Below, piece by piece: positions 6,018 to 32,691 of a stretch of DNA of 38,614 bases; positions within the stretch are counted from its first letter, which is position 1, and each line of letters begins with the position of its first letter. Source of the stretch: Candidatus Bathyarchaeia archaeon (GTDB lineage Archaea; Thermoproteota; Bathyarchaeia; TCS64). The translations under genes and the position numbers were made by a program. The stretch spans positions 1 through 38,614 of the forward strand of contig DASWLJ010000138.1 in the NCBI GenBank assembly GCA_036396185.1, given 5' to 3'. The notes under the pieces were generated by a model, which saw only the letters and a list, made by a program, of their open reading frames with translations, had not been told where the DNA came from and made no database searches.

Positions 6018-6072
6018 CCTCACCATACATAACGATATACTGTTAACTAGCCGTCATTAACGTGGAATAAAC

Positions 6073-7461
6073 TTGAGACAGCGTAGATACAGTAATCAGA
6101 TGCTACTGTTTTCTATGTTGTTATTTACGTCCAATTTCGTTATTAGTGCCGGCGCCTTATCCCCTCTTCCACACGCCATCAGTGGCCGGATACTTTCTCC
6201 GGAAGGAACCATACCTGATTACCTATTACTGGATGCTAGAATAAATGGGACAATTTATGCGTCCACCTACGTCAAAGACGGCGAGTTCGGTGTAAACCCC
6301 TCTTTCAAAGTTCCTTCAGACGATCCAACCACAGAAACCGTTGAGGGAGGACGGCTAGGTGACCTAATCCTGCTCTTTCTTGATGGAGAGAGAGTCGGTG
6401 AACTCGTATTCGAGCCGGGCCGGATAAACAGGCTCATACTTGAAACAGACAAGATCATGGAACAGAAGCCCAGAGTACTCTCGGGAGGACCCTACTATGG
6501 AGTCGCCGGCTACACAGTGAAACTCGATAGTGCAGTAGTGTTCAACCCCGAAGATAACGAGCCTACCTACAGCTGGGACCTGGGAGATGGGTCAACTTCA
6601 AGTCAACTCGAGCCCTCACACAAATATGCACATCCTGGTGACTACATAGTTAATTTTAAACTGGAGGACTCTTCAGGGGTGGTTGACTCAGTTAAAACCA
6701 TTGTCCATGTAGCTACCCTCCCTGACCCAATTTATGGGCGTATTCACCCTGTCCCCATTATTGGTGAAAGCGAATCCATCGAAGACCAAGAAACAGGTCT
6801 CAGTTTCCATCTAAATAGCATCGGTGCTGCGAGTCTATCCTTACTGAGCTACATGGAGCCGTTTCTTCAAAAAGGCAAACCTCCTATTATCAATGGTGCG
6901 TATAGTTTAGGTTTCAGCAATTTGGATGAAATCGCGTGGCCAATATATGTGGAGCGGCGCATGGATGAGACTGTGCCAGGGGCCGGTTTCTATACTTGGA
7001 GTGAAGGCGTCTGGAAGAGAGTTTCATGCACTGGGATAGCCCCAAGTAAAGAAATTGTTTGGGCGTGGCTCACCAAGCAGGAATTAGAGGAAGGCTTATT
7101 ATTGCTGGGAGCCGACCCCGGCAATTATGTTGAGGTCGTATCGGTGGAAACAGTGGTTTTACCTGACAACGTTTACGAGTTTAAGGTAAACATGCTTAGT
7201 AGAGGCTATGAAGGTAACTACACCCTCAACATTGGTCTAGACGGTGAGATATTGGAGCGAAGAAGCACCACGTTTTCAAACGGTGAAACTCGTTCCGAGT
7301 CCTTTGAATATGGTCTAGAGACTGGAACTCATCTGTTGGATGTTAACGGCTTAGAGTATAGCGTCAAAGTTGATTCGCTGATTAAACCTTTCCAGACAAT
7401 TTTATTTAGCATAATACCCATGGCTTCCCTTGTCCTCTTCGTTATGAAGAAACTATTCTAG
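6073..7461 (+). CDS. Secreted PKD-domain protein with C-terminal transmembrane anchor
   Basis: 462 aa with a TTG start. Signal-like N-terminus (MLLFSMLLFTSNFVISAGA). One PKD signature (YSWDLGDGSTS...PGDYIVNFKLEDSSG). A CARDB-like beta module lies near the C-terminus, followed by a terminal hydrophobic helix and basic tail (ILFSIIPMASLVLFVMKKLF). Confidence 0.8.
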   Translation: MRQRRYSNQMLLFSMLLFTSNFVISAGALSPLPHAISGRILSPEGTIPDYLLLDARINGTIYASTYVKDGEFGVNPSFKVPSDDPTTETVEGGRLGDLILLFLDGERVGELVFEPGRINRLILETDKIMEQKPRVLSGGPYYGVAGYTVKLDSAVVFNPEDNEPTYSWDLGDGSTSSQLEPSHKYAHPGDYIVNFKLEDSSGVVDSVKTIVHVATLPDPIYGRIHPVPIIGESESIEDQETGLSFHLNSIGAASLSLLSYMEPFLQKGKPPIINGAYSLGFSNLDEIAWPIYVERRMDETVPGAGFYTWSEGVWKRVSCTGIAPSKEIVWAWLTKQELEEGLLLLGADPGNYVEVVSVETVVLPDNVYEFKVNMLSRGYEGNYTLNIGLDGEILERRSTTFSNGETRSESFEYGLETGTHLLDVNGLEYSVKVDSLIKPFQTILFSIIPMASLVLFVMKKLF

Positions 7462-8112: not shown

Positions 8113-9993
8113 ATGAATAAAAAGTATCTTTTAGGACTCGTTCTCGGGATGCTAGTATGTAGCCTTGTACCTGTTCACGCTGTTGGTATCACTGTGTCTA
8201 CAGACGCCGCGGAGTATGAGCGCGGAGACACCATCAATATCCAGGTTGGCGGAATAACTCAAACCGGGGAATTCCTGTACCTCCAATTCAAAGACCCTAG
8301 TAACAACATTAAATGGGTCAAACAATACAGTATCAGTGCAACAGGTACATGGTACATCAACTTTATTATTCCTTCAGATTGGAACGGCGGAACGTGGACC
8401 ATTCACGTTAAAGAAGGAGCCTCGACAGCTGTATCAACCACATTCGAGCTGAATGTTCCTGTTGTATCACCTGCAGCAGGTAGTAGAGTGATAATTCCAA
8501 CCCCAGATGACATAGAGGACATGACTGACCTCGGGGCAGCCAACACGTTAGCTGAACTCGATCCTGAGGACAGCGCAGACATATTATCAGAAGTTACCCT
8601 TGAGAAAGCTGTTGACATTCTAGAACTCATGGACCCAACACTTGTCACACAGATACTTAGCGAGATGGATACCGATACTGCCACAGCTATTCTGGAACTT
8701 ATGAACAAGAGCAAAGCAGTTGAAGCTATCGCGGGTCTAAGTACAGATTCGGCTGTATCAATACTTGAGGACATGTCTTCATCGGATGTCGCTGGCCTGA
8801 TGGAGGAGGCCGTTAAGAGCGGCGACGTAGACCAGTTCTCAGAGATAATAAACGAGATGGATGAGGACACTGCGGCGGGCATCCTGCTTGATATGGACCC
8901 CGAGTCCGGAGCGGACTTGGTAGTTGGCATGGCACAGAACAACCTTAATGAGGCCGCTAAACGCGTCGAGGCGGCAGTCAAGAAGCGCCTTGGAGAGACT
9001 GACCCTGCAAAGGCGCAGGAAATCATCGATAAAATTGCTGCAACACTGGAGAACGCGGACACCGACACACTTGTCGACATCTTCATAGAGATAGCCAACC
9101 TACCGGCCACGCCATCCACAGTCGCAACCGTGCTGGAGGCCATGGAGCTAACCAAGACCCTGGACGTCGTATCCGCCTGGGTAAACACGGGAAGCCTTGA
9201 GGAGCTAGCCGAGGTATTCAGCTACATGAGCGACGGCTTCTTGGACACCCTGTGGCCAGCCATGGCCTCAGCCGAGAGAAACGCCCTATTCCCGTATCTT
9301 GACTCCGTCACTGTTGCCAAGCTGCCGCAGATGGGCGAGTTCCAAGTCAGTGAGCTATCAGTCTCACCGGCGAGCGTTCAGGCAGGCGCGGTCGTGACCA
9401 TAAGCGTCAAGGTAAGCAACACAGGGGCAGAAGCGGCATCCTACACAGCCGTCCTGAAGGTGGATGGATCAACGGAGGCCACCAAGACGGTCACGATAAA
9501 CGCGGGGCAGTCCACAACGGTATCCTGGACGACCTCCAAGACCACCGCCAAGACATACAGCGTCTCCGTCGACGGCTTAACGGGAAGCTTCACCGTGCAG
9601 GCACCCCCGCAGCCCGCCGCGTTCACCTACTCTAACCTACTGGTGAACCCATCTACGGTGGAGACAGGTAGCCCTGTAACCGTCACAGTCGCGGTATCCA
9701 ACACGGGGGGACAAAGCGGGGCAACCACCGTGGAGCTCAAGGTTAACGGCGCCATAGCGGACACAAAGTCGGTGACAATAAACGCCGGTTCTAGCACCAC
9801 AGCCACATTCACGGTGACCAAGAGCACCGCAGGAACCTACACCATAGGAGTCGGAAGCCTCACAGGCAGCTTCACGGTCCAGGCGCCCCCACAGCCACCA
9901 CAGGACAACACGATGATGTACATCCTAGCCATAGGCGTAGTGCTGGTGGCCGCAATAGGTTACTACTTATACAGCCAAAGAAAAAGCCAGTAA
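8113..9993 (+). CDS. Membrane-anchored surface protein: N-terminal Ig-like domain, MgtE_N-like acidic helical repeats, two CARDB-like domains, C-terminal TM
   Basis: 626 aa. Signal peptide (LLGLVLGMLVCSLVPVHA). The central ~250 aa are Asp/Glu-rich helical repeats resembling the MgtE N-terminal/FliG-like repeat (DPEDSADILSEVTLEKAVDILELMDPTLVTQILSEMDTDTATAILELM...). Two ~90-aa CARDB-like repeats both end in LTGSFTVQAPPQP. C-terminal TM plus basic tail (MMYILAIGVVLVAAIGYYLYSQRKSQ). Confidence 0.85.
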   Translation: MNKKYLLGLVLGMLVCSLVPVHAVGITVSTDAAEYERGDTINIQVGGITQTGEFLYLQFKDPSNNIKWVKQYSISATGTWYINFIIPSDWNGGTWTIHVKEGASTAVSTTFELNVPVVSPAAGSRVIIPTPDDIEDMTDLGAANTLAELDPEDSADILSEVTLEKAVDILELMDPTLVTQILSEMDTDTATAILELMNKSKAVEAIAGLSTDSAVSILEDMSSSDVAGLMEEAVKSGDVDQFSEIINEMDEDTAAGILLDMDPESGADLVVGMAQNNLNEAAKRVEAAVKKRLGETDPAKAQEIIDKIAATLENADTDTLVDIFIEIANLPATPSTVATVLEAMELTKTLDVVSAWVNTGSLEELAEVFSYMSDGFLDTLWPAMASAERNALFPYLDSVTVAKLPQMGEFQVSELSVSPASVQAGAVVTISVKVSNTGAEAASYTAVLKVDGSTEATKTVTINAGQSTTVSWTTSKTTAKTYSVSVDGLTGSFTVQAPPQPAAFTYSNLLVNPSTVETGSPVTVTVAVSNTGGQSGATTVELKVNGAIADTKSVTINAGSSTTATFTVTKSTAGTYTIGVGSLTGSFTVQAPPQPPQDNTMMYILAIGVVLVAAIGYYLYSQRKSQ

Positions 9994-12141: not shown

Positions 12142-12342
12142 ATGGGCGCCTTATCCTTCGTGGGTTTTCTGGCTGTTATGATGGGCTTCTCTCTGCATGT
12201 GTTAGGCGGAGGAGCATACTCGAAGGCCAGGTTCAGCCACGGCGACACTCTCGTCGTAGGACAGGCGTGGTTCGTGGTCCTGGTTCTCGGTCTTCTCATG
12301 ATGGCTGTGGACGCCTACATGTTCTCGGGCGGGTTTCAGTAA
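12142..12342 (+). CDS. Small two-TM membrane protein (hypothetical)
   Basis: From the internal ATG: MGALSFVGFLAVMMGFSLHVLGGG...AWFVVLVLGLLMMAVDAYMF. The upstream part of track ORF 12007-12342 is Arg-rich and not protein-like. Confidence 0.35.
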   Translation: MGALSFVGFLAVMMGFSLHVLGGGAYSKARFSHGDTLVVGQAWFVVLVLGLLMMAVDAYMFSGGFQ

Positions 12343-12383
12343 GCTGGACAGCTGCTAAATATATCCCAAGCCTATCATTCTCC

Positions 12384-14117
12384 ATGGTTTTTACTACTCG
12401 GCCGGTCATCATGGGGACCCACGGCGTTGTGGCTAGCACCCATTACCTGGCCACGGTCGAGGGTCTTCAGGTCCTGAGGGAAGGTGGGGGTGTGGTGGAC
12501 GCTGGAGCCGCCATGTGGTTCACGCTGTCTCTGCTTGAGCCCCACCTGGTGGGCGTCGCGGGGGAGGTACCCATCCTGCTGTACCTTTCAGACGAAGAAC
12601 GCGTCATCGCGGTCAACGGGCAGGGCCCGGCGCCGGCCGCCGCCACCATCGAGTGGTTCAAGGACCACGGGTATCCCATGATCCCGGAGGACGGTTTCAC
12701 GCCAGCCGTGGTCCCGGGGGCCTTCCACGCCTGGATGAGGACCATGGACGAGTACGGGTCCTTGAGCCTCAGGAGAGTCCTCGAACCGGCCATCAGGCTG
12801 GCCAAGGCAGGTTTCCCCGTCTACCCGACGCTCGCAGGCTTCCTTGAGCGCCTCAAGGACAGATACCAGGCGGAGTGGCCCAGCTCAGCCAGGGTCTATC
12901 TCCCGGGCGGAGCCCCACCCGTGGTCGGCCAAGTGATAAATAACCCTGATTGGTCGAGGACCTTCAGCGGGCTCCTCAAGGAGACCAGCCGGGACGCCAA
13001 GACGGGGAGGTCTCACGGGTTCGACGCGGCCATCAAGTACTTCTATGATGGGCCCATAGCCGAGGCCATCATAGACTACACGCAGAGCTTCAGGTGCAGA
13101 GACGTCTACGGGATGGAGAACCACGGGCTGCTAACTAGAGAGGACCTATCCGGCTACAGTTCGAGGTTCGAGAAGCCCGTGTCCGTCAACTACAGGGGCC
13201 TCGACGTCTATAAGTGTGGGCCGTGGACCCAGGGGCCGGTGCTTCTGCAGATGCTTAACCTGCTGGAGGGCTACGACCTGAAGTCCATGGGCCACAACAG
13301 CGTGGAGTACCTTCACACAATAATTGAGGCCGCGAAGCTCGCCTTCGCTGACAGGGAGCAGTACTACGCGGACCCCAACTTCGTGGACGTGCCCCTCGGC
13401 AGGCTTCTATCCAAGAGTTACGCCGACGAGCGTCGAACCCTCATAGACCCAGATGAGGCGTCGATGATGCTTAGGCCTGGGGGTGTGCCACCAATCGAGC
13501 TGAAGGAGAGCGGGGAGAAGCCCTTCCACGAGGGCGACACGGTGCACCTTGAGGCCGTGGACCGCGAGGGAAACATGTTGTCGGCTACGCCCAGCGGCGG
13601 ATGGATCAGGACCAGCCCCTTGGTTCCCGGCCTAGGCTTCCCAGTGGGCACCCGAGGCCAGTTCTTCCACCTGGACCCAAGCCATGTGGAGCGGCTGGAG
13701 CCGGGTAAAAAGCCCAGCACCACCCTGACCCCGAGCCTCGTGTTGAGGGACGGCAGGCCCTACATGGTGTTCGGTACGCCGGGGGGAGACCAGCAGGACC
13801 AGTGGACCCTACAGCTGTTCCTCAACCATGTGGATTTCGGGATGAACGTGCAGGAGGCTATCGACGCCCAGACGGTTCACACCAGCAGCTTCCCTGGCAG
13901 CTTCTGGCCTCATGCTGTGAGGCCAGGCGAGGTGAGCGTGGAGCCCGGTATACCCGTCGCCGTGGTGGAGGCGCTCAAGAAGAAGGGCCACAGAGTGGTG
14001 ATGAGCAGGCCCTGGAGCCATGGCAGGTGCCTGGCGATAAGGTTCGACGCCGAGACGGGGGTCATCCACGGAGGGGCTTCGCCCAGGACGGGTAATCCTT
14101 ACGCCATGGGCTGGTGA
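12384..14117 (+). CDS. ggt: Gamma-glutamyltranspeptidase family (Ntn hydrolase)
   Basis: 577 aa from ATG 12384; the track ORF start at 12267 adds a non-protein-like extension. GGT hallmarks: THGVVASTHYLAT, nucleophile region EGDTVHLEAVDREGNMLSATPSGG, C-terminal FGTPGGDQQDQ. Confidence 0.93.
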   Translation: MVFTTRPVIMGTHGVVASTHYLATVEGLQVLREGGGVVDAGAAMWFTLSLLEPHLVGVAGEVPILLYLSDEERVIAVNGQGPAPAAATIEWFKDHGYPMIPEDGFTPAVVPGAFHAWMRTMDEYGSLSLRRVLEPAIRLAKAGFPVYPTLAGFLERLKDRYQAEWPSSARVYLPGGAPPVVGQVINNPDWSRTFSGLLKETSRDAKTGRSHGFDAAIKYFYDGPIAEAIIDYTQSFRCRDVYGMENHGLLTREDLSGYSSRFEKPVSVNYRGLDVYKCGPWTQGPVLLQMLNLLEGYDLKSMGHNSVEYLHTIIEAAKLAFADREQYYADPNFVDVPLGRLLSKSYADERRTLIDPDEASMMLRPGGVPPIELKESGEKPFHEGDTVHLEAVDREGNMLSATPSGGWIRTSPLVPGLGFPVGTRGQFFHLDPSHVERLEPGKKPSTTLTPSLVLRDGRPYMVFGTPGGDQQDQWTLQLFLNHVDFGMNVQEAIDAQTVHTSSFPGSFWPHAVRPGEVSVEPGIPVAVVEALKKKGHRVVMSRPWSHGRCLAIRFDAETGVIHGGASPRTGNPYAMGW

Positions 14118-14136
14118 GGAACTAAAAAAAGGGTGG

Positions 14137-14421
14137 TTAAGCTTTTTTCTTAGCCTTCTCGTAGGCCGCCCTCTCGATTATCGGGCTGACCTCAACGTCT
14201 AGGTATGGGGCGTAGTCCTCCACCCACTTGGCGACCTTGATCTCGTCGTCTGTGTCCACGACGAAGAAGGCCTTGTACTGCGTGACGAAGTGGTGGATAG
14301 GGAAGATCATTTCGTCTCCCCAGTTCTCGCCTCTCTCAATCCTCTTCTTCTCCACGTCGTAGGCTTTCTTGGTGTTCTCTGCTACGGGCTCGCGGGCGCC
14401 GTAGACGAAGACGTACTTCAA
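14137..14421 (-). CDS. Small alpha+beta protein, DUF3303-like (recollection of family pattern, unverified)
   Basis: The track ORF starts at 14439. An in-frame TTG at 14421 preceded by GGAGG gives (M)KYVFVYGA..., which matches the short-N-terminus pattern of this ~95-aa family. The C-terminal part is ...VAKWVEDYAPYLDVEVSPIIE. Confidence 0.6.
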   Translation of the reverse strand: MKYVFVYGAREPVAENTKKAYDVEKKRIERGENWGDEMIFPIHHFVTQYKAFFVVDTDDEIKVAKWVEDYAPYLDVEVSPIIERAAYEKAKKKA

Positions 14422-14475
14422 GCATGGGTGCCTCCACACATTAATGGGTGGAGAAACTAAAAATACGTGTCGCTT

Positions 14476-15438
14476 TCAGTGGGCGGGTAGATACTTCTTA
14501 GGGAACTTGGCGACCACCGAGTAGTTGGGGTCGACGACGTTCCCCACTCTGCACCTGCCTACCTGCGAGAGTAACTGTAGCGCGTCCATTTTACCGTAGC
14601 CGTAGTCCTCGCAGAGCCACTTCACCATCTCGACGTGGGCGATCTTGTACGCCTCCATCAGTGGTCTTGTGCTCCCCACGGTCATAATCCACTCATCGTC
14701 CACTATGCGGGGCCACTCGATGCCCTTACCCTTAACGACGTCAACCCTCACGGTCACCTCTGAGGAGGTCTCAAGGGCCACGCCGCACAGCTCCCCGTCG
14801 CCCTGAGCCGCGTGGACGTCCCCGAATACAAGGTAGCCCCCCTCAACGAAGACCGGGAGGAGAAGCGTCGCCCCTGCCCTGGTTTCGACGCAGTCCATGT
14901 TCCCGCCGTACTCCCCCGGGGCGAGGGACATCTCCACTCTCCCAAACCTTGGTGCCACGCCTATGGAGCCTATGAATGGGTGGAGAGGGATGGACGCCTC
15001 CTTGAGGATGCTGTCAGGGAGCTCGACGAACCCCGTGTTCTCCTTCAGGTCGAGCCTCCACTCGTACCTTTTATGAGGTAGAGGATCGTTCAGGAGCAGT
15101 CTCCGGCCGGGCACCTCCTCCGTGAGAGACCCGAACCATGGGAGGATGTTCGAGTAGGCTGAGGGTCTGGTGAGCTTGATCCTCTGGATGTCCACCACCA
15201 GAGTGTCCCCCTGCTCCGCCCCCTCCACGTAGAAGGGGCCCGTCAACGGGTTTGATGAGCTGAGAGAGGTGCCCCGCATCCTCTGCCTCATCTCGTCTGG
15301 GATGGGCTTACCTTTGTGGTCCTGCCCCCCCGCGTCCACCGTTGGCGCGGTTATTGTGTCACCAGGCTTTACGTGGTGGGCGGGCTCGTTGGGGCCGTAC
15401 GTGTGATAGAATATGTTTGGCTTAAAGTGATGGTTCAT
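14476..15438 (-). CDS. Acetamidase/formamidase family amidohydrolase
   Basis: 320 aa. Family-typical segments: VKPGDTITAPTVDAGG, GPFYVEGAEQGDTLVV, GGNMDCVETRAGATLLLPVFVEGGYLVFGDVHAAQGDGE. Confidence 0.92.
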   Translation of the reverse strand: MNHHFKPNIFYHTYGPNEPAHHVKPGDTITAPTVDAGGQDHKGKPIPDEMRQRMRGTSLSSSNPLTGPFYVEGAEQGDTLVVDIQRIKLTRPSAYSNILPWFGSLTEEVPGRRLLLNDPLPHKRYEWRLDLKENTGFVELPDSILKEASIPLHPFIGSIGVAPRFGRVEMSLAPGEYGGNMDCVETRAGATLLLPVFVEGGYLVFGDVHAAQGDGELCGVALETSSEVTVRVDVVKGKGIEWPRIVDDEWIMTVGSTRPLMEAYKIAHVEMVKWLCEDYGYGKMDALQLLSQVGRCRVGNVVDPNYSVVAKFPKKYLPAH

Positions 15439-16389: not shown

Positions 16390-17289
16390 CTACTGGGAGA
16401 TGACGTACTGAATTGTTTGAATGGCGGTGTAGATGTTCACGGTGGCCTCGGGTCCCCTATAGACTCCCTTATGCCCGGGGCACATGATGGTTTTACCAGA
16501 GATCAATGGTAGAATACTGTTCAGTGAATCCATCTGCATGTTGAGGAGCATCGGCGCATACATTTTTAGCATCTCCAGGGCACCATAGTCGAGCTCATAG
16601 GTGAAGTCCAGCGTGTGTATGTCTTCGTCTCGGGACGGTAGGCTCGCGTCGCCCGTGAATAAAAGTTTCTTGCAAGTGTACTCCAGCGCAACGCTCCCCA
16701 TCGTGTGCCCAGGCACAGGGTGATACAGGAAGCCGCCCGGCATGCTGGATGCCTCGTATGCGGCGTCGGGCGTGTACCCCGTGTACCTGAAGTCGTCGTA
16801 GGGTGCCTCGGCGTTACCCGTCTCAACCATCTGCCAATCCATTACCCCTATGAACACGGCTGCGCCTTTATCCTGGAAGAAGCCCCCGCCTCCGGCGTGA
16901 TCAGCGTGACCATGTGTCAACAGAACGGCTGTGATCGGTTTTCTCCCAAATGTGGCCTTAACCCTGAGGTACAGTCTCTGAGCCAGGTCCTCCGTGCCGC
17001 TGTCAACGAGGATAACCCCCTTCCCCGTGTCAACGGCGTAAACATTGACCGAGTAGAACGCGAACCTCGGGAAACCCTCGATTGTGATGGGGACATACTC
17101 CGTGTACCTCACGACCCCCTTACACACCTGGTCTTGGACGATCAGGCCATCCTCGAAGAACTTCATTGCCTTCGGCGTAGCGTACGCTACCTGTGCGAAA
17201 GACGGCGCGACTAGGACCAAAACTATGGTTAATATGAGGGCCTTACTGGCCATGTGTCTTGTTTGACTCATCTTACTTTCCTTCTTCAA
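16390..17289 (-). CDS. Secreted metallo-beta-lactamase-fold hydrolase
   Basis: 299 aa. Signal peptide (ALILTIVLVLVAPSFAQVAYA), HxHxDH motif (LTHGHADHAGG), and downstream His/Asp ligands (VPGHTMGS, FTGDA, CPGHKG). Confidence 0.9.
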   Translation of the reverse strand: MKKESKMSQTRHMASKALILTIVLVLVAPSFAQVAYATPKAMKFFEDGLIVQDQVCKGVVRYTEYVPITIEGFPRFAFYSVNVYAVDTGKGVILVDSGTEDLAQRLYLRVKATFGRKPITAVLLTHGHADHAGGGGFFQDKGAAVFIGVMDWQMVETGNAEAPYDDFRYTGYTPDAAYEASSMPGGFLYHPVPGHTMGSVALEYTCKKLLFTGDASLPSRDEDIHTLDFTYELDYGALEMLKMYAPMLLNMQMDSLNSILPLISGKTIMCPGHKGVYRGPEATVNIYTAIQTIQYVISQ

Positions 17290-17709: not shown

Positions 17710-18864
17710 ATGTTAGCAGATTTAGAAATCCCTGTCAGATTTCTAAATGGCTTGGTTACTGTAGGTTTTTTCTTTCATCTCTATAGGGTGTACAAGAAAA
17801 CCCAGAGGCGGTTCTACCTCTACTGGGGCATTGGGTTCCTGCTGTACGGGCTAAACATATTAATGAGAATAGGTGAGGGACCGTCCTTCTCCCAGTGGCT
17901 GGCCGCGTTCTTCCTTCTAGGCGGCTTCATCAGCATGATAGGCGGCATAGCCGACCTGGTGAATCGCATAAGCCTGCTCTACGTTGTGCTCATACTGCCC
18001 ATCGCCCTGTTGGTACTGCTGGTGTCACCTTTCCCTGAGGTCATGCTCGTGGAGAGGATCGGCTGGGTGATAAGCATCCTCCCCTTTCTAATCATATTCC
18101 TCAGCTTCCTACTCATCCAGATCAACTTCGCCTCCTCCATAGACCTCCTGCTGGTGGGCTGGGGCCTCCTCCTCCTGACAAACATCGCTTTGGCATTCAA
18201 CGCCATGGAGGTCTACTTCGTCGACGTGATGGCCATATTCGCCAAGATAGTGATCTTCGTGGGCATGATCAAGCCCAGCTTCTCTCTGCTCGTGGACGAC
18301 TTGAAGGAGTACCTGATAGCGGGGAACCCGACCGCCTACGTCTCCGAGGCTAACGGAGGAGTCTCGCTGATAAGCACGGGGGTGGACCGCAGCGCCGTGT
18401 TCGACTGGATCGTTGACAGGGTGAGGGATAACTCCATCAAAGGAGTCCGAACCATCCTCATATCCACGTATGACCTGATCTCCGTCAACGACCTGTCCTC
18501 GAGGATGATCGAGGACAAGGTGTACTTCGTGAGGATGATAGCGGGTGGCCGCAGCGCCAAGAAGATCTTTGAAGAGAACATCATGCAGGTGGACGATGAC
18601 CTCAACATATTGGAGCTTCTCTTCACGGATGTCGTAACCTACTCTAATGAGAGGAAGCTAAACTGTGACATAATCCTCTACTCGATATCCAGCCTGATCC
18701 ACAACCACGGATGGAGGAGGATGTACTCGTTCCTCCTATCAAACTTGACTCAGTTCAAGTCAAGCCGCGTACGGCTCCTATTGTTCTTCATCCCCGAGAC
18801 CCACGAAGACGAGTCTGAGGTTAAACGGTTCGAGGCCGTGGCCGATAACGTCGTCACCCTGTAG
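17710..18864 (+). CDS. Polytopic membrane protein with C-terminal degenerate (Walker-A-less) KaiC/RecA-like domain (DUF835-type architecture)
   Basis: 384 aa. The N-terminal ~190 aa form 6-7 hydrophobic helices. The C-terminal ~180 aa have KaiC-like strand/helix periodicity (GGVSLISTGVDRSAVFDWIVDRV...RTILISTYD...CDIILYSISSL...LLLFFIPETHED), but the P-loop GxxGxGKT is replaced by STGVDRSA. Confidence 0.8.
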   Translation: MLADLEIPVRFLNGLVTVGFFFHLYRVYKKTQRRFYLYWGIGFLLYGLNILMRIGEGPSFSQWLAAFFLLGGFISMIGGIADLVNRISLLYVVLILPIALLVLLVSPFPEVMLVERIGWVISILPFLIIFLSFLLIQINFASSIDLLLVGWGLLLLTNIALAFNAMEVYFVDVMAIFAKIVIFVGMIKPSFSLLVDDLKEYLIAGNPTAYVSEANGGVSLISTGVDRSAVFDWIVDRVRDNSIKGVRTILISTYDLISVNDLSSRMIEDKVYFVRMIAGGRSAKKIFEENIMQVDDDLNILELLFTDVVTYSNERKLNCDIILYSISSLIHNHGWRRMYSFLLSNLTQFKSSRVRLLLFFIPETHEDESEVKRFEAVADNVVTL

Positions 18865-20281
18865 AGCTCTTGAGGAGCTCTAGGCTCTCCTGCGACATGT
18901 TTATCCTGCTTATCTTGGGTATCCCCGTCTTCCTCTGCAGGTACCTGTGGAAAGTTCCCTTCGGCAGCGTCTCGATCTTCAGCGGATTGTACTGCAGCAT
19001 ACTGCTCATGTCGCGCCAATCCTTATCGTACTCCATGAGCCGCGCATTGACCCTGGATGATACTTCCTCGGTGTCCATCGGCTTCTGCAGTTCGACGTAC
19101 ATCTTCATGTATTCACGGGAGTACTCTATCTCCCTCATGGCGGTGAAGTCAACGTACTCCACCCCCGCCGTGTTTAACACATCGATAAGCTCATCCTCGT
19201 TTATCCTTGTGAAGTTGTGGAGCACTATCAGGTTGTCGGCCCTCGCGTAGTACCTGAACACGGGTATATTTGACCCGATGATTTTATCCTCGAGGGCCAC
19301 GCACTCGACCAGGTCCGGCATGGCGTACCTCACAAGGTCGTTGCCGTAGGGGGTCGCGATCAGCTGGTAGACCTTCCCCACCTCCACGCCCGTCATCGAC
19401 ACCACATCCTCGATGGGATCCGTCGTGACCCTGCCGTTGTCCAGCCTCTGCTTCTCCGGGAGGAACTCCGCGTAGACGACCCGCCAGTCGAAGAAGAAGC
19501 AGCCCGGGTACTCGACGGATGGCAGGGCGATCAACATGGTCTCGGTGGACCCGAAGATTGTCTTCGGGTAGCTCCCCGTCACCTCCTTGATCTTGTCCCT
19601 CAGGACGTACGCGGAGCGGTCCGTCGTCAGGAACCCCTTCAGTTTGATGGGTTCCTGGATCTTGGGGTAGACCTGGTCCAATAATGTGGTTACCGTCATG
19701 TACGCTATGTCGATCTCATTGTAGTGTTTGAGGAAGTAGTCCACCTTCTCCTGGAAGGAAAGGTTCGGGTCGGGAACCTCAGTGATCCACCCCACATGCT
19801 TCCTCGTTATGATGTCGTAGTAGAAGCCGCTGATGAACTGGCCGCCGGGCATGTTGTGGTAGACCACGTCCCCCACCTCGTAGGTGATCCTATGGCCGTC
19901 ATGGGTGCAGAGGAACTGGAACGTCAGCCCTGTCTTCTGGATGCTGTTCCAGAGCCCTGTTTTGGGCAGAAGGAACGTCTTGGGCTTACCCATCGTGCCG
20001 CTGGTTAGTACTCGCAGATAGTCGCTGATAGGGTAGATGAAGTCGCCGACATGAGGGTTCTCGAAGAAGGGCTGATAGAAGTTGTAGTGCGTCAACGGGA
20101 CATCGCTTATCGGTGTCTCAGGTTTGACTCCGAGTTTACGCCCGATTCCCGTCTGCGCGACCTTCCTCAGATGGTCCCTTATTAAACCGTCTACCTTAGC
20201 CTTGTAGTCTCTCTCCTTTAACCAGTTCATCGAGTAGTACTGCAGAAACGGCTTCATGATCTGGTTGATGATCTTTGGCAT
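18854..20281 (-). CDS. GH3-family-like adenylate-forming enzyme (ANL/GH3 superfamily)
   Basis: 475 aa. The N-terminal pattern is typical of bacterial/archaeal GH3 proteins (…IGRKLGV…PLTHYNFYQPFFE…RVLTSGTMGKPKTFLLPKTG). A second adenylation motif is IFGSTETM. The 3' end overlaps the convergent gene by 11 nt. Confidence 0.8.
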   Translation of the reverse strand: MPKIINQIMKPFLQYYSMNWLKERDYKAKVDGLIRDHLRKVAQTGIGRKLGVKPETPISDVPLTHYNFYQPFFENPHVGDFIYPISDYLRVLTSGTMGKPKTFLLPKTGLWNSIQKTGLTFQFLCTHDGHRITYEVGDVVYHNMPGGQFISGFYYDIITRKHVGWITEVPDPNLSFQEKVDYFLKHYNEIDIAYMTVTTLLDQVYPKIQEPIKLKGFLTTDRSAYVLRDKIKEVTGSYPKTIFGSTETMLIALPSVEYPGCFFFDWRVVYAEFLPEKQRLDNGRVTTDPIEDVVSMTGVEVGKVYQLIATPYGNDLVRYAMPDLVECVALEDKIIGSNIPVFRYYARADNLIVLHNFTRINEDELIDVLNTAGVEYVDFTAMREIEYSREYMKMYVELQKPMDTEEVSSRVNARLMEYDKDWRDMSSMLQYNPLKIETLPKGTFHRYLQRKTGIPKISRINMSQESLELLKSSTG

Positions 20282-20294
20282 GGGCCCATCACTT

Positions 20295-21029
20295 TTACGT
20301 GATCACGGCTTCCTTGTTGAACACCGAGAAGCCCCTGTTGGTTATGAGGTATCTTCTGGGCTGCTCATCGAAGCTTGTCCCCCTCATCTTGTCGATACGC
20401 AGTGTCTTCACCAGTTTAAAGTCTATGATCTCCTTTTCTAGAACAAAGACCCCATCTGATAGGAACTGCTCCATGTAGAAGTCGTTGTTGTTGGGTATGC
20501 TCTCAGAGATGATGAGTCCAGTGCACTTCTTCCTCTTGATTGAGTCAAAGATCTGGCCGATCTGGTACCTCTTCGGCCCAGACCTGACCTCGTGGATGAC
20601 GATGCTCGTCAGGGGGTCGATCACGATGTGCTTAGCCTTTATCCGGTCCGCCTCGTCCTCTATCGCCTTTATGATGCCCATCTCTAGTTTCCCATGAACC
20701 CTCTCATAGGGCTCCACTATGCCCCTGGCCTGAGGAATCATGCTGATGTCCAGGACCCCCAGCTTCTTGTCGTCCATGGCCTTCTGGAGGTCCCAACCGA
20801 ACTCCTTCGCGTTCTCTAATTTATCCGGGAAAGACTCTTCCAGCGAGACGTAGACGCATGGCTCGCCTCGGTTGATAGCGGTAACCATGTAGTGTTGCGA
20901 GAATATTGTCTTCCCGGTTCCAGGACCCCCGCATATAAGAATGATTTTACCTTTAGGCACCCCACCCGTAAGCATCTCGTCCAGGCCGGAGACCCCGGTC
21001 AACACTCGGTTCAATCCTTGGCTTGTCAT
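20295..21029 (-). CDS. Single-domain KaiC-like (RecA-superfamily) ATPase
   Basis: RVLTGVSGLDEMLTGGVPKGKIILICGGPGTGKT (Walker A), HIVIDPLTS (Walker B), and a KaiC-like C-terminus (LRIDKMRGTSFDEQPRRYLIT). The track ORF starts at GTG 21086, but a TATA-like box (21088-21100) abuts that codon, so ATG 21029 is more plausible. The gene ends 13 nt before the GH3-like gene. Confidence 0.9.
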   Translation of the reverse strand: MTSQGLNRVLTGVSGLDEMLTGGVPKGKIILICGGPGTGKTIFSQHYMVTAINRGEPCVYVSLEESFPDKLENAKEFGWDLQKAMDDKKLGVLDISMIPQARGIVEPYERVHGKLEMGIIKAIEDEADRIKAKHIVIDPLTSIVIHEVRSGPKRYQIGQIFDSIKRKKCTGLIISESIPNNNDFYMEQFLSDGVFVLEKEIIDFKLVKTLRIDKMRGTSFDEQPRRYLITNRGFSVFNKEAVIT

Positions 21030-21384
21030 AGTGCTGTCGCCCCCCGTCAAGTCACCTATAGAGAATATGTTCTCTTTATTTAACACGTTATTTATACTTT
21101 ATTATCTTTAAGATTTAGGTGTCTATCACGGTGTTGATGTTTTAGGGTAACCGTTTTGTTGATTACCTTTTCTATGGACGTTCAGGTTATCTTATTCGAG
21201 ACAAGCATAGGGACTTAGTTGCGCGCGCTTGCGTTGTACTTGGTCAAGGCCGAAGGCAACGTCTTGATAAAGCTACGGGGGGGAGGCGTCGAGGGCTGGG
21301 GTCAGGGGCTGCTGAGACCTCAGTCTCTGGCAGTCTAGAACCTGGCAGGAGGGCCTCGCATCGATATCGTTCAGGGTAAATATA

Positions 21385-28397: not shown

Positions 28398-28997
28398 TTG
28401 CACAGTAAACGAGGCATGACGGGGCTGGAGACGGCCATCATCCTGGTAGCTTTCGTTATCACGGCGGCCGCCTTCGCGTTCGTCGTGCTAAACATGGGTT
28501 TCCTCACGGCGGAGAAGGCGCAGTCTGTGATCAGCTCAGGCATGGCCGAGGCCAGCTCATCCATCCTCATGGACAGCGGCCTCATCGCCCAGTTCAACAA
28601 CACGGGCGGGGCCCAGGCCGATGTAAGGCTCCTGAAGGCAACCTTCTACCTGAAGTTGAGCCAGGGCCACGAGCCAGTGGACATGAGCGACGACAAGCTA
28701 GTGGCCACCTACACTAACGTGAGGTGCCACGGCGAGATCTACGCCAGCAACGGCACCATCATGACCATCAAGGGCGTGAACAGCGACGGCGACAGGCTAC
28801 TCGAGACTGGTGAGAAGGTCAGGGTCACAATCGACTTCACAGCAATAGACGCGGCTGAAATGGACCCCACGGGGGCCGACGTGTACGCTCACCCATACGA
28901 GGAGTTCAGGATCGAGCTGAGGCCCTCCATGGGGGCGGTGCTGACCATCGAGAGGCAGCTGCCGGCAGTGTACACCACCATAATGACGATAGATTAA
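28398..28997 (+). CDS. arlB: Archaellin (archaeal flagellin)-family protein with class III signal peptide
   Basis: 199 aa with a TTG start. The N-terminus MHSKRG|MTGLETAIILVAFVITAAAFAFVVLNMGFLTAEKAQSVISSGMAEASSS closely follows the crenarchaeal-type archaellin N-terminal domain (compare the Sulfolobus FlaB pattern ...KG|LAGLDTAIILIAFIITASV...). The start is ambiguous: ATG 28416 lies about 25 nt downstream of aataaa. Confidence 0.85.
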   Translation: MHSKRGMTGLETAIILVAFVITAAAFAFVVLNMGFLTAEKAQSVISSGMAEASSSILMDSGLIAQFNNTGGAQADVRLLKATFYLKLSQGHEPVDMSDDKLVATYTNVRCHGEIYASNGTIMTIKGVNSDGDRLLETGEKVRVTIDFTAIDAAEMDPTGADVYAHPYEEFRIELRPSMGAVLTIERQLPAVYTTIMTID

Positions 28998-29067
28998 GCT
29001 AACCCCTCCTTCCCCTATCACCTTTTTTAACTATACAAGGTCTAAACGGCTCAAACCGCACTACGCT

Positions 29068-29565
29068 GTGAAAGCGATGAACAGAAGAAGAGGCTTGATG
29101 ATAGCAGCCTCCGTGGTCATGGCGCTGGTCTTCTACACCATCTACACAAGCACGATCATCCTCTGGGACGCCTACGGACTTGAGGTCACGCAGACCGAGA
29201 GCAGCGACCCCGAATCAACCATCACGGTAACATACGCTGATCTAGGCGACTACCCACTCGTAGAGAGCACATTGGAGACAGTGCGGGGGAACGACAGTAC
29301 GATAATCACCTACAAGGACGGTGACACCATAAACCAGTTCAGCGCCCTGGTCGATGCTAAAGGCGGCGACTTGGATCATGGATACGTTTACCTCAGCCTC
29401 GACGGGGACGAGTACTTGGTGGCCTACACCATCTACGGAGGCATGAAAGACGAACCTGTGTACCTGGCCTTGACGGGGCTATCGACCCTCACGGCGGTAG
29501 CCCTAACCCTCAAAGAGATTTTCAGTCACCTAAGAGGAACATTAAAGATGCCCTGCGACTTATGA
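29068..29565 (+). CDS. Hypothetical membrane protein (N- and C-terminal hydrophobic helices)
   Basis: 165 aa (GTG 29068, or ATG 29077 giving MNRRRGLMIAASVVMALVFYTIY). A beta-rich acidic middle region, then a second hydrophobic helix (VYLALTGLSTLTAVALTL). It lies 71 nt downstream of the archaellin gene on the same strand. Confidence 0.55.
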   Translation: MKAMNRRRGLMIAASVVMALVFYTIYTSTIILWDAYGLEVTQTESSDPESTITVTYADLGDYPLVESTLETVRGNDSTIITYKDGDTINQFSALVDAKGGDLDHGYVYLSLDGDEYLVAYTIYGGMKDEPVYLALTGLSTLTAVALTLKEIFSHLRGTLKMPCDL

Positions 29566-29569
29566 TGAC

Positions 29570-30619
29570 TCAACCTTTGTTTGTGGGTTTACTCCTCTCA
29601 GATTCTATCCTGTAAAGTGTTGATGTGACGTACATGGCTATGGTTTCAAGGAGCCTATGCTCACGATACCTGAAGGGGTTGAGCCTGTTACTCTGTACGT
29701 GTAGGAACGCGACGATCTCTCCATGCGTCTTTATCGGCACCATTAGCTCTGTTCTTATCAAGGGGACGTCCTCCTCCTGTGGCTGCTCCGGGGTAGCTCT
29801 ACCCTCCACATCGAAGGAGGTTCTCCCTATCTTCACCATTCTCCAGGTTACGCCCGTCTCGTCCAGCGACAAGCTCCAGTCGTGAGGAAGCGTAGCATTC
29901 TTCGGGAGAGTGAATAAGAACCGGAAGTTACTGTTCTCCACCACCCCAAAGCCGATCTGGTTAAAGACCATGACCTTTGAAATAGTTATCACAGTCGTTT
30001 TAGCCACGTCTTCGATTGACTTAGCGTCCTCTAAGTCGTGCTGATATTTGTACAGGAGGTCGATGAGAGCTCGCTCACTCTGAGGAATAATGTTTGCCTC
30101 TTTCTGGATCTCCAGAACTATCCTGTAGTTGAATGACTCTATGATGTTCAGCTTCACCTTGAGCAAACCTTCAAGGAAACCATAGATGAAGTAAGGGCTC
30201 GAGAAGATGGGTTTGGTAATAATTATTTTGTCGTTTTCAAGTGTAAAGAAGCCCCAGCCAAACAGCTTGCTCAAGTCACGGAGTATCTTCTGCGTGAATG
30301 CTTCCTCTAACAGATCGCTTTCCTCGTAGCGTAGGCTCACCCTGGCCATGCGGCCCATCTCCTGACCGGCCTCGTAGAGCTTACGATCCTCGAACTGGCT
30401 GAAACAAAAGTTGATGGTCTCGGACATGAATAGTCCAACCCTGTACTGGTTGATCCAGAATGATCCTTCCTCCCACCTGTCCAGCGAGTAGTACTCGTAG
30501 CGGTCCATGACTCTGTTGAAGAACTCCTCTAGGGATAACCCTGAGCTGCGAATTTTCTCTCTGCGTTCCTCCGATAGAAACAGGGTTGCCCTGACCTTCC
30601 GATCAGTTCTATCGTCCAT
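29570..30619 (-). CDS. Putative ligand-sensing regulator: RHH-like N-terminus, V4R-like domain, C-terminal GAF-like domain
   Basis: 349 aa. KVRATLFLSEERREKIRSSGLSLEEFFNRVMD fits a ribbon-helix-helix. ...LFGWGFFTLENDKIIITKPIFSSPYFIYGFLEGLL fits the V4R pattern. The C-terminus is GAF-like (ELMVPIKTHGEIVAFLHVQSNRLNPFRYREHRLLETIAMYVTSTL). Confidence 0.75.
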   Translation of the reverse strand: MDDRTDRKVRATLFLSEERREKIRSSGLSLEEFFNRVMDRYEYYSLDRWEEGSFWINQYRVGLFMSETINFCFSQFEDRKLYEAGQEMGRMARVSLRYEESDLLEEAFTQKILRDLSKLFGWGFFTLENDKIIITKPIFSSPYFIYGFLEGLLKVKLNIIESFNYRIVLEIQKEANIIPQSERALIDLLYKYQHDLEDAKSIEDVAKTTVITISKVMVFNQIGFGVVENSNFRFLFTLPKNATLPHDWSLSLDETGVTWRMVKIGRTSFDVEGRATPEQPQEEDVPLIRTELMVPIKTHGEIVAFLHVQSNRLNPFRYREHRLLETIAMYVTSTLYRIESERSKPTNKG

Positions 30620-30733: not shown

Positions 30734-31291
30734 ATGTCTGATGACCAGGCATTCATTGCACAGAAGAAACCATGGTGGTACATGTCTGCGCGGCAGATCG
30801 GCGTAGCGGCTGCTTTTTCCGGCATGGCTCTAGCCATCACACTTACCCACATAGTTGTACCAATCCCTGGCCTACCTGGTGGCGGCGGCATGGACCCTTC
30901 GGAGATCATCAGGGCGATTGGTGCTGCTCTCGGCGGTCCCTCGGTAGGGCTAGTGATAGGTCTATTCGGCTCGGTGTCCTCGATAAGTAACGTAGTCACC
31001 CATATACCTGCAGTAGTCTTCATTGGCTGGATCTACAAACGCATTTACTCTTACCCTAAGACAAAGAGAATGATCTACTGGCTGATATCGATAGCAGTTT
31101 ACTACTACATCGGTCTCGTTCCTCTGATAGCCCTTACTACCAGTATACAGTACTTTAAGGGGCTGGACATGTTCGTCCCAATGATAGTGGCCGTAGCTCC
31201 GGGGATTTCACCCGAATTTGTGGTCACTGCAATAGTTACGACAATCATCTGGGGCGCCCTCCCCGAGAAGTACACCAAGCCTCTGTGGTAA
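30734..31291 (+). CDS. Small 5-6 TM membrane protein, likely ECF-transporter S (substrate-capture) component
   Basis: 185 aa of Gly-rich TM helices (IGVAAAFSGMALAITLTHIVV, IIRAIGAALGGPSVGLVIGLFGSV, ...). Size and topology are typical of S components, and it is the first gene of an operon that also encodes an ECF-type A-A' ATPase and T component. Substrate class not recognisable. Confidence 0.6.
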   Translation: MSDDQAFIAQKKPWWYMSARQIGVAAAFSGMALAITLTHIVVPIPGLPGGGGMDPSEIIRAIGAALGGPSVGLVIGLFGSVSSISNVVTHIPAVVFIGWIYKRIYSYPKTKRMIYWLISIAVYYYIGLVPLIALTTSIQYFKGLDMFVPMIVAVAPGISPEFVVTAIVTTIIWGALPEKYTKPLW

Positions 31292-31293
31292 AC

Positions 31294-32688
31294 ATGACCA
31301 CTGATGCCGAAGCACCCCTTTTTATTAAAAATTTACTAGAGCGTAGACGAACAGATTTCTTCGATGTACGCTTCCAGAGAACCACAAGCACCGTAATTCA
31401 GATCCTGGACAGTGAGCCTACGCAGGCCAGTCAGTATACAGTCTCCGGGGTAGGGGTTAGGGTTCTTAGGAACGGACTATGGGGTTTTTCCTCAACAAGC
31501 GAACTGGACCAGGAGAGTCTGAGATCAACCTGCATTAAAGCCCTGAAATCAGCTAGAACAGGTAAACGGAGAAGGATAAAATTTCCCGAGATGAAAGCCG
31601 TAACAGGAGAGCACATCATTAAACCTGAGCTGGACCCCCTAGATGTGCCCCTACAGGACAAGTTGGACCGGCTTATAGGCTTTGAGGAGCTCATCAAGGG
31701 CTCCGACAGTCGGGTGAAGTCGACCCAAGTAAGGTACAGTGACTCAGTTGAGGAAGTCACAATAGTCAATTCAGAGGGCTCCAGCGTAGCCATGTCTCAG
31801 CCCCGGGTGGACATAGGCTTCAACGTGGTCGCCAACGACGGGAAGATGTCTCAGCACACGAGAGGAAGGGAGGCCACGCTCGGCGGCTGCGAGTTCCTAG
31901 AGAACCCTGTATTGAATGAGACGGCCCTGAACACCGCCAAGAGGGCATTAGACCTCTTGGAGGCTAAGCAGGCCCCCTCCGGTAGGTCAACGGTGGTGAT
32001 GGACCCGTCTGTGGCCGGTCTCTTCCTGCATGAAGCCTTCGGCCACTCAGCTGAGGCGGACTCCGTCCTCCAGGGGAGGTCGTTTCTGGCGGGCATGATC
32101 GGTGAGGCAGTGGCATCCGAGTTCGTCACAGTGTACAGCGACCCCACGATGGCTGGAAACCCCGGCTCCTACCCCTTCGACAGCGAGGCTGTCCCGGCCG
32201 TTAAAACCAGCCTCATAGAGGGAGGTGTCTTTAAAACGTATATGCACAGCAGGTCTACGGCGGCGGCTTACGGGATCAAGTCCACGTCCAACGCCAGGGC
32301 CGAGGACTATGGAAAGCCCCCCATTGTACGGATGAACAACCTCTACTTCAAGCCAGGCGGATCCACCTTAGAAGAAATAATAGGCGAGACCAAGAGCGGC
32401 GTATACCTCGTTAGCGGAGGCGGCGGCATGGAGGACCCTGAGAAGGGCCGCTTCCAGTTCTCTGTTCAGAACTGCTACGAGATAGTTGACGGCGAGATAG
32501 GTTCACCGCTCAGAGGCACATCGCTGTCGGGCTGGACCATAGAGACCATGCGGAGCATAGACATGCTAAGCAGGGATCTCTCGATTGACTTGGGGAGCTG
32601 CGGCAAGGGAGAACCCCTGATGCAGATTCTGCCGGTCGCAAACGGGGGCCCGTACATCCGGGTGAACAACGTTCTCCTCGGAGGGTAA
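31294..32688 (+). CDS. tldD: TldD-type metalloprotease subunit
   Basis: About 464 aa (ATG 31294; the track start GTG 31285 overlaps the upstream stop). It has the HExxxH motif in TldD context (FLHEAFGHSAEADSV) and a C-terminal Gly-rich PmbA_TldD pattern (GVYLVSGGGGMEDPEKGRFQFSV...). Confidence 0.93.
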   Translation: MTTDAEAPLFIKNLLERRRTDFFDVRFQRTTSTVIQILDSEPTQASQYTVSGVGVRVLRNGLWGFSSTSELDQESLRSTCIKALKSARTGKRRRIKFPEMKAVTGEHIIKPELDPLDVPLQDKLDRLIGFEELIKGSDSRVKSTQVRYSDSVEEVTIVNSEGSSVAMSQPRVDIGFNVVANDGKMSQHTRGREATLGGCEFLENPVLNETALNTAKRALDLLEAKQAPSGRSTVVMDPSVAGLFLHEAFGHSAEADSVLQGRSFLAGMIGEAVASEFVTVYSDPTMAGNPGSYPFDSEAVPAVKTSLIEGGVFKTYMHSRSTAAAYGIKSTSNARAEDYGKPPIVRMNNLYFKPGGSTLEEIIGETKSGVYLVSGGGGMEDPEKGRFQFSVQNCYEIVDGEIGSPLRGTSLSGWTIETMRSIDMLSRDLSIDLGSCGKGEPLMQILPVANGGPYIRVNNVLLGG

Positions 32689-32691
32689 GCC

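Follow-up and report, generated by a model that had tools for sequence, protein, structure and literature searches.

We analyzed a 38,614-nucleotide (nt) stretch of DNA from a Candidatus Bathyarchaeia archaeon (contig DASWLJ010000138.1 of assembly GCA_036396185.1, positions 1 to 38,614), the whole of which we call the window. Within it, three neighboring genes encode a membrane protein, a GH3-like adenylate-forming ligase and a KaiC-like ATPase. In the list of open reading frames (ORFs), the membrane protein gene (17710–18864, + strand, 384 amino acids) and the ligase gene (18854–20281, − strand, 475 amino acids), which we treat as the two core components, are convergent and overlap by 11 nt at their 3′ ends. 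The accessory third component is the gene for a single-domain KaiC-like ATPase (20295–21029, − strand, 244 amino acids, with the longest ORF extending to 21086). It lies upstream of the ligase gene on the same strand, and 13 nt separate its stop codon from the ligase start. An earlier interpretation made from the DNA letters alone, referred to as the sequence-only reading, had placed the three ORFs at these same coordinates, with the same gap and overlap, and had regarded them as a KaiC-centered module. The arrangement is real and more robust than such a reading could show, and it is to be re-centered on the ligase and the membrane protein.

To characterize the ligase, we combined profile searches, structure prediction and alignment. 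Two Pfam models matched above the cut-off of 23.6, namely GH3_M (PF23571) with 31.7 bits and GH3_C (PF23572) with 26.1 bits. The model for the GH3 N-terminal domain (PF03321) gave no match to the window's ligase at E ≤ 0.01, and precomputed matches to it exist for six ligase homologs of 48–52% identity (P0036, P0039, P0051, P0057, P0070 and P0118). When a profile built from 16 homologs was searched against PDB sequences, only plant GH3 chains were returned (best E 8.7e-6), and no sequence match to a PaaK or AMP-binding model was found in the Pfam, NCBIfam or PDB searches. The AlphaFold model of the ligase (pLDDT, the predicted local distance difference test, 89.8) was matched by Foldseek to BT_0428 and PaaK (E 5e-19) and to GH3.12 and JAR1 (3e-18), all at probability 1.0. 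The predicted fold is that of a two-domain ANL (adenylate-forming) enzyme of the GH3/PaaK branch. An alignment of 69 homologs located the phosphate-binding loop TSGTMGKPK at residues 93–101 (19979–20005, − strand) and showed no variation at T93-S94-G95, E247, D323, R347, D349 and N356-R359. Conservation reaches at least 90% at K99 and K101, and the GSTE motif is conserved as well. Given this conservation of the nucleotide-binding motifs, the ligase should be an active adenylating enzyme. The GH3/ANL assignment of the sequence-only reading is thus borne out by two GH3 domains above cut-off and by the presence of TSGTMGKPK and GSTE. The carboxylate-to-amine chemistry associated with it is not established, because the fold is equally near to PaaK-type coenzyme A (CoA) ligases and to plant GH3 enzymes. 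We therefore describe the protein as an enzyme with the ANL fold whose sequence makes it a distant member of the GH3 family, and not as a demonstrated amido synthetase.

The membrane protein matched none of the Pfam and NCBIfam models at normal thresholds. Its AlphaFold model (pLDDT 78) has seven transmembrane (TM) helices (residues 3–187), a linker helix (189–204) and a cytoplasmic α/β domain (217–383). From the alignment and the AlphaFold helices, we delimited a 7TM domain, a putative sensor or input domain, at 17710–18270 (+ strand), and from the fold match an inactivated KaiC-like (iKaiC) domain at 18358–18858 (+ strand). Foldseek matched the α/β domain to RAD51/DMC1, FlaH, KaiC CI and PH0250 at probability 1.0, with TM-scores relative to the target of 0.38–0.59 (0.48 for FlaH (4yds), 0.42–0.50 for KaiC CI and 0.59 for PH0250). 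The corresponding E-values are only 3e-3 to 2e-2, which we attribute to the TM half that the query contained. The strand order and the Walker-equivalent positions align with dozens of RecA-superfamily chains. At the P-loop position the window's protein has STGVDRSA, and both Walker A and Walker B are missing in 39 of the 39 aligned family members, so the C-terminal domain is an inactivated one. The sequence-only reading had described a membrane protein with a KaiC-like domain that lacks the P-loop, and the seven helices, the RecA/KaiC fold and the missing Walker motifs agree with that description.

The suggestion that this domain is of the DUF835 type did not survive. DUF835 (PF05763) gave no match in 21 members of the membrane family, even at E ≤ 10, and the proteins form a separate and very small family. 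When 1.84 billion representatives were searched exhaustively in HMMER with the membrane-protein profile, only 110 clusters matched at E ≤ 1e-3, and almost all of these share one architecture of ~385 amino acids. Sub-threshold matches to DUF7504, a KaiC-like model, were found in 15 of the 21 members (best E 5e-5), and in protein P0330 the DUF7504 match falls on a genuine KaiC domain that has a P-loop. A direct profile-profile proof of KaiC descent was attempted and given up, as hhalign of the dead domain with the module's own KaiC gave a probability of 0.13%, which is not significant; the fold and DUF7504 were used instead. A search of the dead domain against PDB sequences returned nothing. Taken together, the label "inactivated KaiC/RecA-fold domain" is justified, and the domain belongs to no described family.

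In the 7TM domain, six polar residues are invariant (R10, N13, N49, R53, N158 and K179). According to the alignment and the model, the first five of these sit in the presumed outer helix halves. We also considered a rhodopsin-like protein, given that the top Foldseek match was a rhodopsin-Arf1 chimera and that TM7 has an invariant Lys. This idea was dropped at a TM-score of 0.28 and a root-mean-square deviation of 17 Å, and the match therefore reflects only the overall layout of seven TM helices and a nucleotide-binding-type domain.

The KaiC-like gene product matched PF06745 with 187.1 bits (cut-off 26.6) over profile positions 2–230 of 231. Its Walker A (GGPGTGKT), SLEES glutamates, Walker B (IVIDPLTS) and C-terminal DKMRG..DEQPRRY are all intact, and equivalent motifs with small variants are present in 17 of the 17 aligned orthologs. 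As the sequence-only reading had it, this is a KaiC of the active type. It is a single-domain protein, since the models for two-domain circadian KaiC (NCBIfam NF006799 and TIGR02655) fell far below their cut-offs (155.6 bits vs 408 and 113 vs 546). No KaiA- or KaiB-like genes were noted among the annotated proteins of the window. In every one of the 17 aligned orthologs, the start aligns with Met20 of the listed ORF, which indicates that the real start is probably ATG 21029 (244 amino acids) and not GTG 21086. A TATA-like element, AAAGTATAAATA, was found by sequence reading upstream of KaiC (21089–21100, − strand). It stands only 3 nt from GTG 21086 and therefore also favors ATG 21029. We regard AAAGTATAAATA as a candidate promoter of a KaiC-GH3 transcript.

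Recurrence of the ligase-membrane protein pair

To determine how widely the arrangement recurs, we assembled 124 loci from two samples. For 44 of them, one genome per species was searched for relatives of the ligase (the ligase-side sample). A further 80 came from metagenome contigs searched for relatives of the membrane protein (the membrane-side sample). A locus was counted as assessable when enough flanking DNA was present. The 44 ligase-side loci are almost all from Bathyarchaeia, with one from Geothermarchaeales and one labeled Thaumarchaeota. We found that the ligase gene adjoins a membrane gene in 60/60 assessable loci and that the membrane gene adjoins a ligase gene in 62/62. Within the ligase-side sample the pair is kept in 43 of 44 loci, the exception (L030) being cut by a contig end. 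One divergent paralog of the membrane protein (L111 1439–2650, 31% identity) has no ligase gene nearby. After clustering, the pair is kept in all 62 clusters at 90% identity and in all 37 at 70%. Recurring as it does in 62 non-redundant lineages, the gene arrangement is far beyond chance.

The two genes are not fixed in one orientation. Three orientations were observed, namely convergent, membrane gene followed by ligase gene, and ligase gene followed by membrane gene; in convergent pairs the 3′ ends overlap by up to 23 nt or stand at most 5 nt apart. In addition, 13 genomes carry two or three paralogous ligase-membrane pairs, from which we conclude that the two genes are duplicated together. 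Between the ligase and the membrane protein, distance matrices are correlated at r = 0.92 (Mantel test, 0/2000 permutations), part of which is shared species history. At four loci, a second and divergent membrane paralog (26–36% identity) lies across the ligase gene, so that a ligase gene on one strand is flanked by membrane genes on the other (L032 1314–5165, L035 25–3271, L037 1133–5037 and L028 8841–13607). At the last of these, KaiC adjoins the second membrane copy. Three loci (L008, L009 and L024) come from metagenome-assembled genomes (MAGs) labeled bacterial (Patescibacteria, Krumholzibacteriaceae and Desulfaltia). L009 and L024 carry the flanking genes of Bathyarchaeia loci and L008 is without them; all three are probably mis-binned contigs. 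Outside a single archaeal class, the module occurs in a few relatives only.

KaiC is a less constant companion. Of 55 assessable pairs, 32 (58%) have it alongside, and several genomes hold one pair with KaiC and another without it. In 22 loci the order is that of the window, with KaiC and the ligase gene co-directional and the membrane gene convergent to them. Nine loci have the membrane and ligase genes co-directional and KaiC convergent to the ligase gene. In one locus, the ligase and membrane genes are co-directional and KaiC converges on the membrane gene; this locus belongs to a distant lineage, with a ligase that shares only 35% identity with the window's. The adjacency of KaiC and GH3-type genes in other genomes, on which the sequence-only reading depended, does therefore recur. 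Its view that the module is centered on KaiC is rejected, since the ligase and the membrane protein are invariant partners (60/60 and 62/62) and KaiC is found in 32/55. Because KaiC joins 32 of the 55 pairs and pairs without it coexist in the same genomes, we describe the system as a two-gene core with a frequent third member. Where KaiC and the ligase gene are co-directional, the gap between them measured 1–13 nt, mostly 8–13 nt, in 16 loci. These short gaps make co-transcription of KaiC and GH3 likely, as had been supposed.

A proposed sensor-coupled ligase and its alternatives

We found that parts of the membrane protein are used in other signaling proteins. In protein P0182, a receiver domain (REC, 95 bits) is fused to the dead KaiC-like domain of the membrane family (E 4e-44 to the family profile). 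In a larger family, of response regulators of ~290 amino acids, hhalign aligned the C-terminal domain with iKaiC over its second half (69%, E 4e-5). By this profile comparison, the ~290-residue REC-iKaiC family is probably related to the iKaiC domain of the membrane protein. REC-iKaiC fusions, in which iKaiC is DUF835 or MEDS, are a documented archaeal signaling architecture (PMC5847659). Since it is fused to REC elsewhere, the iKaiC half appears to be an interchangeable signaling part, and an iKaiC domain beside an active KaiC is met again in another setting. The evidence that the 7TM half is interchangeable too is only suggestive: in protein P0237, the family's 7TM domain precedes a region that weakly matches NitrOD5, a response-regulator output domain. 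The ~290-residue response regulators are encoded in operons with a histidine kinase, KaiC and TackOD1. At loci L125 (3761–9187) and L126 (3212–8638), an operon encodes, in order, a PAS-PAS histidine kinase, a REC-iKaiC-like protein (P0260), KaiC and TackOD1. Here a two-component system feeds into a KaiC unit, and the operon adjoins T2SSF and T2SSE genes of the type IV pilus/archaellum type.

The identities of the genes, their folds, the conservation of catalytic motifs, the near-invariant adjacency, the duplication of the pair as one and the re-use of iKaiC with REC are direct observations, and on them we base the following proposal, in which contacts between the proteins, the way the signal travels, the ligase's substrate and its acceptor are inferred. 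The membrane protein would be a 7TM sensor or scaffold whose inactivated KaiC domain is coupled to the GH3-type ligase, with KaiC as an optional ATP-driven regulator; we consider this proposal evenly poised between right and wrong. The 7TM domain would serve as the input and sense a ligand, possibly an anionic one, at a site formed by the invariant R10, N13, N49, R53 and N158. An anionic ligand is suggested by the two invariant Arg and three Asn residues in the presumed outer helix halves, and anionic molecules are the class that GH3 and PaaK enzymes activate. The iKaiC domain would dock the ligase and couple its activity to the state of the sensor. The ligase would activate a carboxylate with ATP and then hand the acyl group to an acceptor. 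Lastly, KaiC, where it is encoded, would probably pair with iKaiC through RecA-type subunit contacts and add an ATP-dependent switch or gate.

Several points count against this proposal. Among the homologs found, no fusion of GH3 with the membrane protein or with KaiC was seen. Enzymes of the ANL superfamily mostly serve metabolism, and catabolic PaaK ligases are among the closest structures that Foldseek returned for this one. The relationship between iKaiC and KaiC rests on the fold and on the weak DUF7504 matches, with weak support at the sequence level. When compared with known sensor families, the 7TM domain gave nothing significant (best DUF5985, E 1e-3; 7TMR-DISM, 0.7). As for re-use of the domains, P0182 is a single sequence on one 2.4-kb contig, and the NitrOD5 match of P0237, at 25.6 bits, is below the Pfam cut-off of 27.

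The metabolic matches bear on a second explanation, according to which the 7TM domain is a channel or permease that imports an organic acid (for example an aromatic or fatty one), the docked ligase traps it as an acyl-CoA or amide, and KaiC, where encoded, regulates uptake. The top Foldseek matches are PaaK-type acyl-CoA ligases (BT_0428 with E 5e-19 and TM-scores of 0.64/0.70, and PaaK1/2), and some homologs of the ligase have been named "PaaK-like adenylate-forming protein" by JGI. The two or three paralogous pairs per genome, which on this explanation would handle different substrates, are common for catabolic uptake systems. A carboxylate could pass along a route lined by the helices' invariant Arg and Asn residues, and peptidases and amidases are abundant in the window. 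However, no conserved catabolic genes lie downstream, and the neighbors beyond the three genes vary by lineage. The cytoplasmic domain is of a signaling type, as the REC fusion shows, and one relative combines the 7TM domain with a region that weakly matches a signaling output domain. Moreover, 58% of assessable pairs have a KaiC ATPase linked to them, no transporter family is similar to the 7TM domain (Foldseek gave KimA a TM-score of 0.17), and by sequence the enzyme matches GH3 models only and not those of PaaK or AMP-binding enzymes. On balance, we think substrate capture, the main rival of our proposal, rather unlikely.

A third possibility draws on an analogy with plants, in which JAR1 makes jasmonoyl-isoleucine (JA-Ile). 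Here, the 7TM/dead-KaiC protein would be a receptor that controls a GH3-type ligase making or inactivating a small acyl-amino-acid conjugate that serves as a signal, with KaiC as an ATP-driven gate. Such a hormone-like pathway, peculiar to Bathyarchaeia, seems to us an unlikely outcome.

Less probable again is a role in envelope or lipid modification, loosely comparable to DltA/DltB, in which the ligase would activate a carboxylate such as an amino acid and the membrane protein would transfer it to a lipid or surface polymer. The strict pairing of a cytoplasmic adenylating enzyme with a polytopic membrane protein and the conserved polar residues in its TM helices fit such a role. However, we detected neither a carrier protein nor a catalytic motif like that of acyltransferases, and there are no conserved glycosyltransferase or envelope genes nearby. 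For a simple transferase, a dead ATPase-fold half that is also fused to REC and a link to KaiC would be unexpected, and we regard this role as quite improbable. Lastly, that the genes are neighbors by shared ancestry only and the "dead KaiC" is an unrelated α/β domain is a very remote prospect: although part of the wider synteny is inherited within one subclade and the Foldseek E-values of the C-terminal domain are only 3e-3 to 2e-2, the adjacency survives 37 clusters below 70% identity, three orientations and duplications, KaiC re-associates on either side of the pair, the fold is matched with probability 1.0 to dozens of RecA-superfamily chains, and clustering excluded that the loci are near-identical assemblies of a single lineage.

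Flanking genes and other features of the window

The closest relative of the locus (L001), on a contig of an uncultured Bathyarchaeia MAG, has nine genes in identical order with ~94% protein identity. The sequence-only reading had listed an orphan receiver, a secreted metallo-β-lactamase-fold (MBL) hydrolase and a helix-turn-helix (HTH) regulator as flanking the module. The receiver and HTH genes were seen only in close relatives, and the MBL hydrolase recurs in just 12 loci. When the receiver, the HTH regulator and the formamidase were considered as module members, all three were rejected, as no relative below 60% GH3 identity has them. Confined to close relatives, these genes reflect local synteny. 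Part of the wider synteny (prolyl-tRNA synthetase, M20 amidohydrolase and an Fe-S protein) is inherited within one subclade.

The gene for the MBL hydrolase (16390–17289, − strand; Pfam Lactamase_B, 94.5 bits) is divergent from the membrane gene over a 420-nt AT-rich spacer, and its product has an apparent signal peptide. A homolog of 34–89% identity lies at most 510 nt from the membrane gene in the 12 loci, all of which have the gene order of the window, and is mostly divergent from the membrane gene. The hydrolase evolves fast, showing 34–42% identity where the ligase shows 45–70%. In some modules it may serve as a fourth component, producing a ligand. A defense system was considered and rejected. 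PADLOC returned no match for the ligase or the membrane protein and only a generic P-loop match for KaiC, and the neighbors are housekeeping genes.

Elsewhere in the window, gamma-glutamyltranspeptidase, DUF3303 protein and formamidase/acetamidase genes lie beside the orphan receiver (12267–15438) and form a nitrogen/peptide salvage cluster; synteny of the receiver gene with those for DUF3303 and formamidase extends to L001 and L002, the closest relatives. Two large PKD-domain proteins (3066–7461) are followed by a 626-amino acid protein (8113–9993, + strand) with MgtE_N and weak FliG_M-like matches together with CARDB and other Ig-like domains, an unusual combination. Positions 28398–30619 hold an archaeal flagellin/pilin-type protein (28398–28997), an ORF of 165 amino acids and a convergent 349-amino acid protein with a weak GAF match. 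Further on, a TldD/PmbA metallopeptidase pair (31285–34089) lies upstream of genes for an ABC ATPase with duplicated ATP-binding cassettes and a CbiQ-type transmembrane component (34099–36677). Directly downstream of these are two tandem DUF4438 paralogs (36708–38467, + strand), with matches to the N- and C-terminal domains at E ~1e-40. Scanning the window for tRNA genes and Rfam elements gave zero matches.

Comparison with known systems

KaiC-like ATPases have been proposed as the main native signaling hubs of archaea, and few of their outputs are known. An enzyme class with defined chemistry (adenylation and ligation) that is tied near-invariantly to an iKaiC sensor protein would give such a hub a concrete output that can be assayed. 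The strict partnership of ligase and membrane protein is likewise a starting point for the study of GH3 enzymes outside plants. Our literature searches found no functional study of a prokaryotic GH3 homolog, and to our knowledge there is none. If the hormone-like pathway were true, it would be the first function for such a homolog and a new type of output of the archaeal KaiC network. Bathyarchaeia are abundant, uncultured archaea of sediments, and a lineage-specific pair present in two or three copies per genome probably reflects an important perception or processing of organic acids in this group. In the searchable literature we found no description of the ligase-membrane gene pair in Bathyarchaeia and none of KaiC or iKaiC with GH3-type enzymes, which the supplementary tables of the 2017 survey by Makarova, Galperin and Koonin may mention.

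The membrane protein invites comparison with the 7TMR-DISM receptors, which also have seven helices followed by a cytoplasmic signaling module; alternative cytoplasmic domains may be possible in our family too, as P0237 hints. However, a 7TMR-DISM match was found in only 5 of 21 members, at E ~0.7, and the extracellular DISMED domain is absent, so this is a resemblance of design and not membership. ArlH/FlaH of the archaellum motor is likewise a single-domain KaiC fold that docks on partners at the membrane, and its structure 4yds ranks with the best matches that the dead domain gave. Whereas FlaH is soluble and keeps its nucleotide site, in the domain described here both Walker motifs are gone and seven TM helices are attached, and the module contains no archaellum genes.

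For the ligase, the short ANL ligases PaaK (phenylacetate-CoA ligase) and Bacteroides BT_0428 are of similar size and are the best structural matches (E 5e-19, TM-scores 0.64–0.70), but there is no match at the sequence level and no paa-type catabolic genes lie near the module. Plant GH3 enzymes (JAR1/GH3.11, PBS3/GH3.12, GH3.5 and GH3.6) are its sole PDB sequence matches. The ligase matches the GH3_M and GH3_C models of that family, and it has in common with the plant enzymes the N-terminal stretch leading into the P-loop, the three motifs for nucleotide binding and a fold of two domains (TM-score 0.66 relative to the query). It is ~100–130 residues shorter, has 14–16% identity to them and lacks a PF03321 match, and it is strictly paired with a membrane protein, whereas the plant enzymes are not.

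The nearest counterpart of the module as a whole is the set of archaeal signaling hubs that Makarova, Galperin and Koonin reportedly described in 2017 (as summarized in PMC5847659), in which KaiC-like ATPases work with iKaiC domains such as DUF835 and MEDS. The module departs from these hubs in that its iKaiC domain matches neither DUF835 nor MEDS, and in that its obligate partner is a GH3-type ligase while KaiC is dispensable in ~40% of lineages. The module resembles them in placing a single-domain KaiC beside a degenerate KaiC-fold protein that is joined to an input domain, and in having an iKaiC domain that, as is the case for DUF835, also occurs fused to REC.

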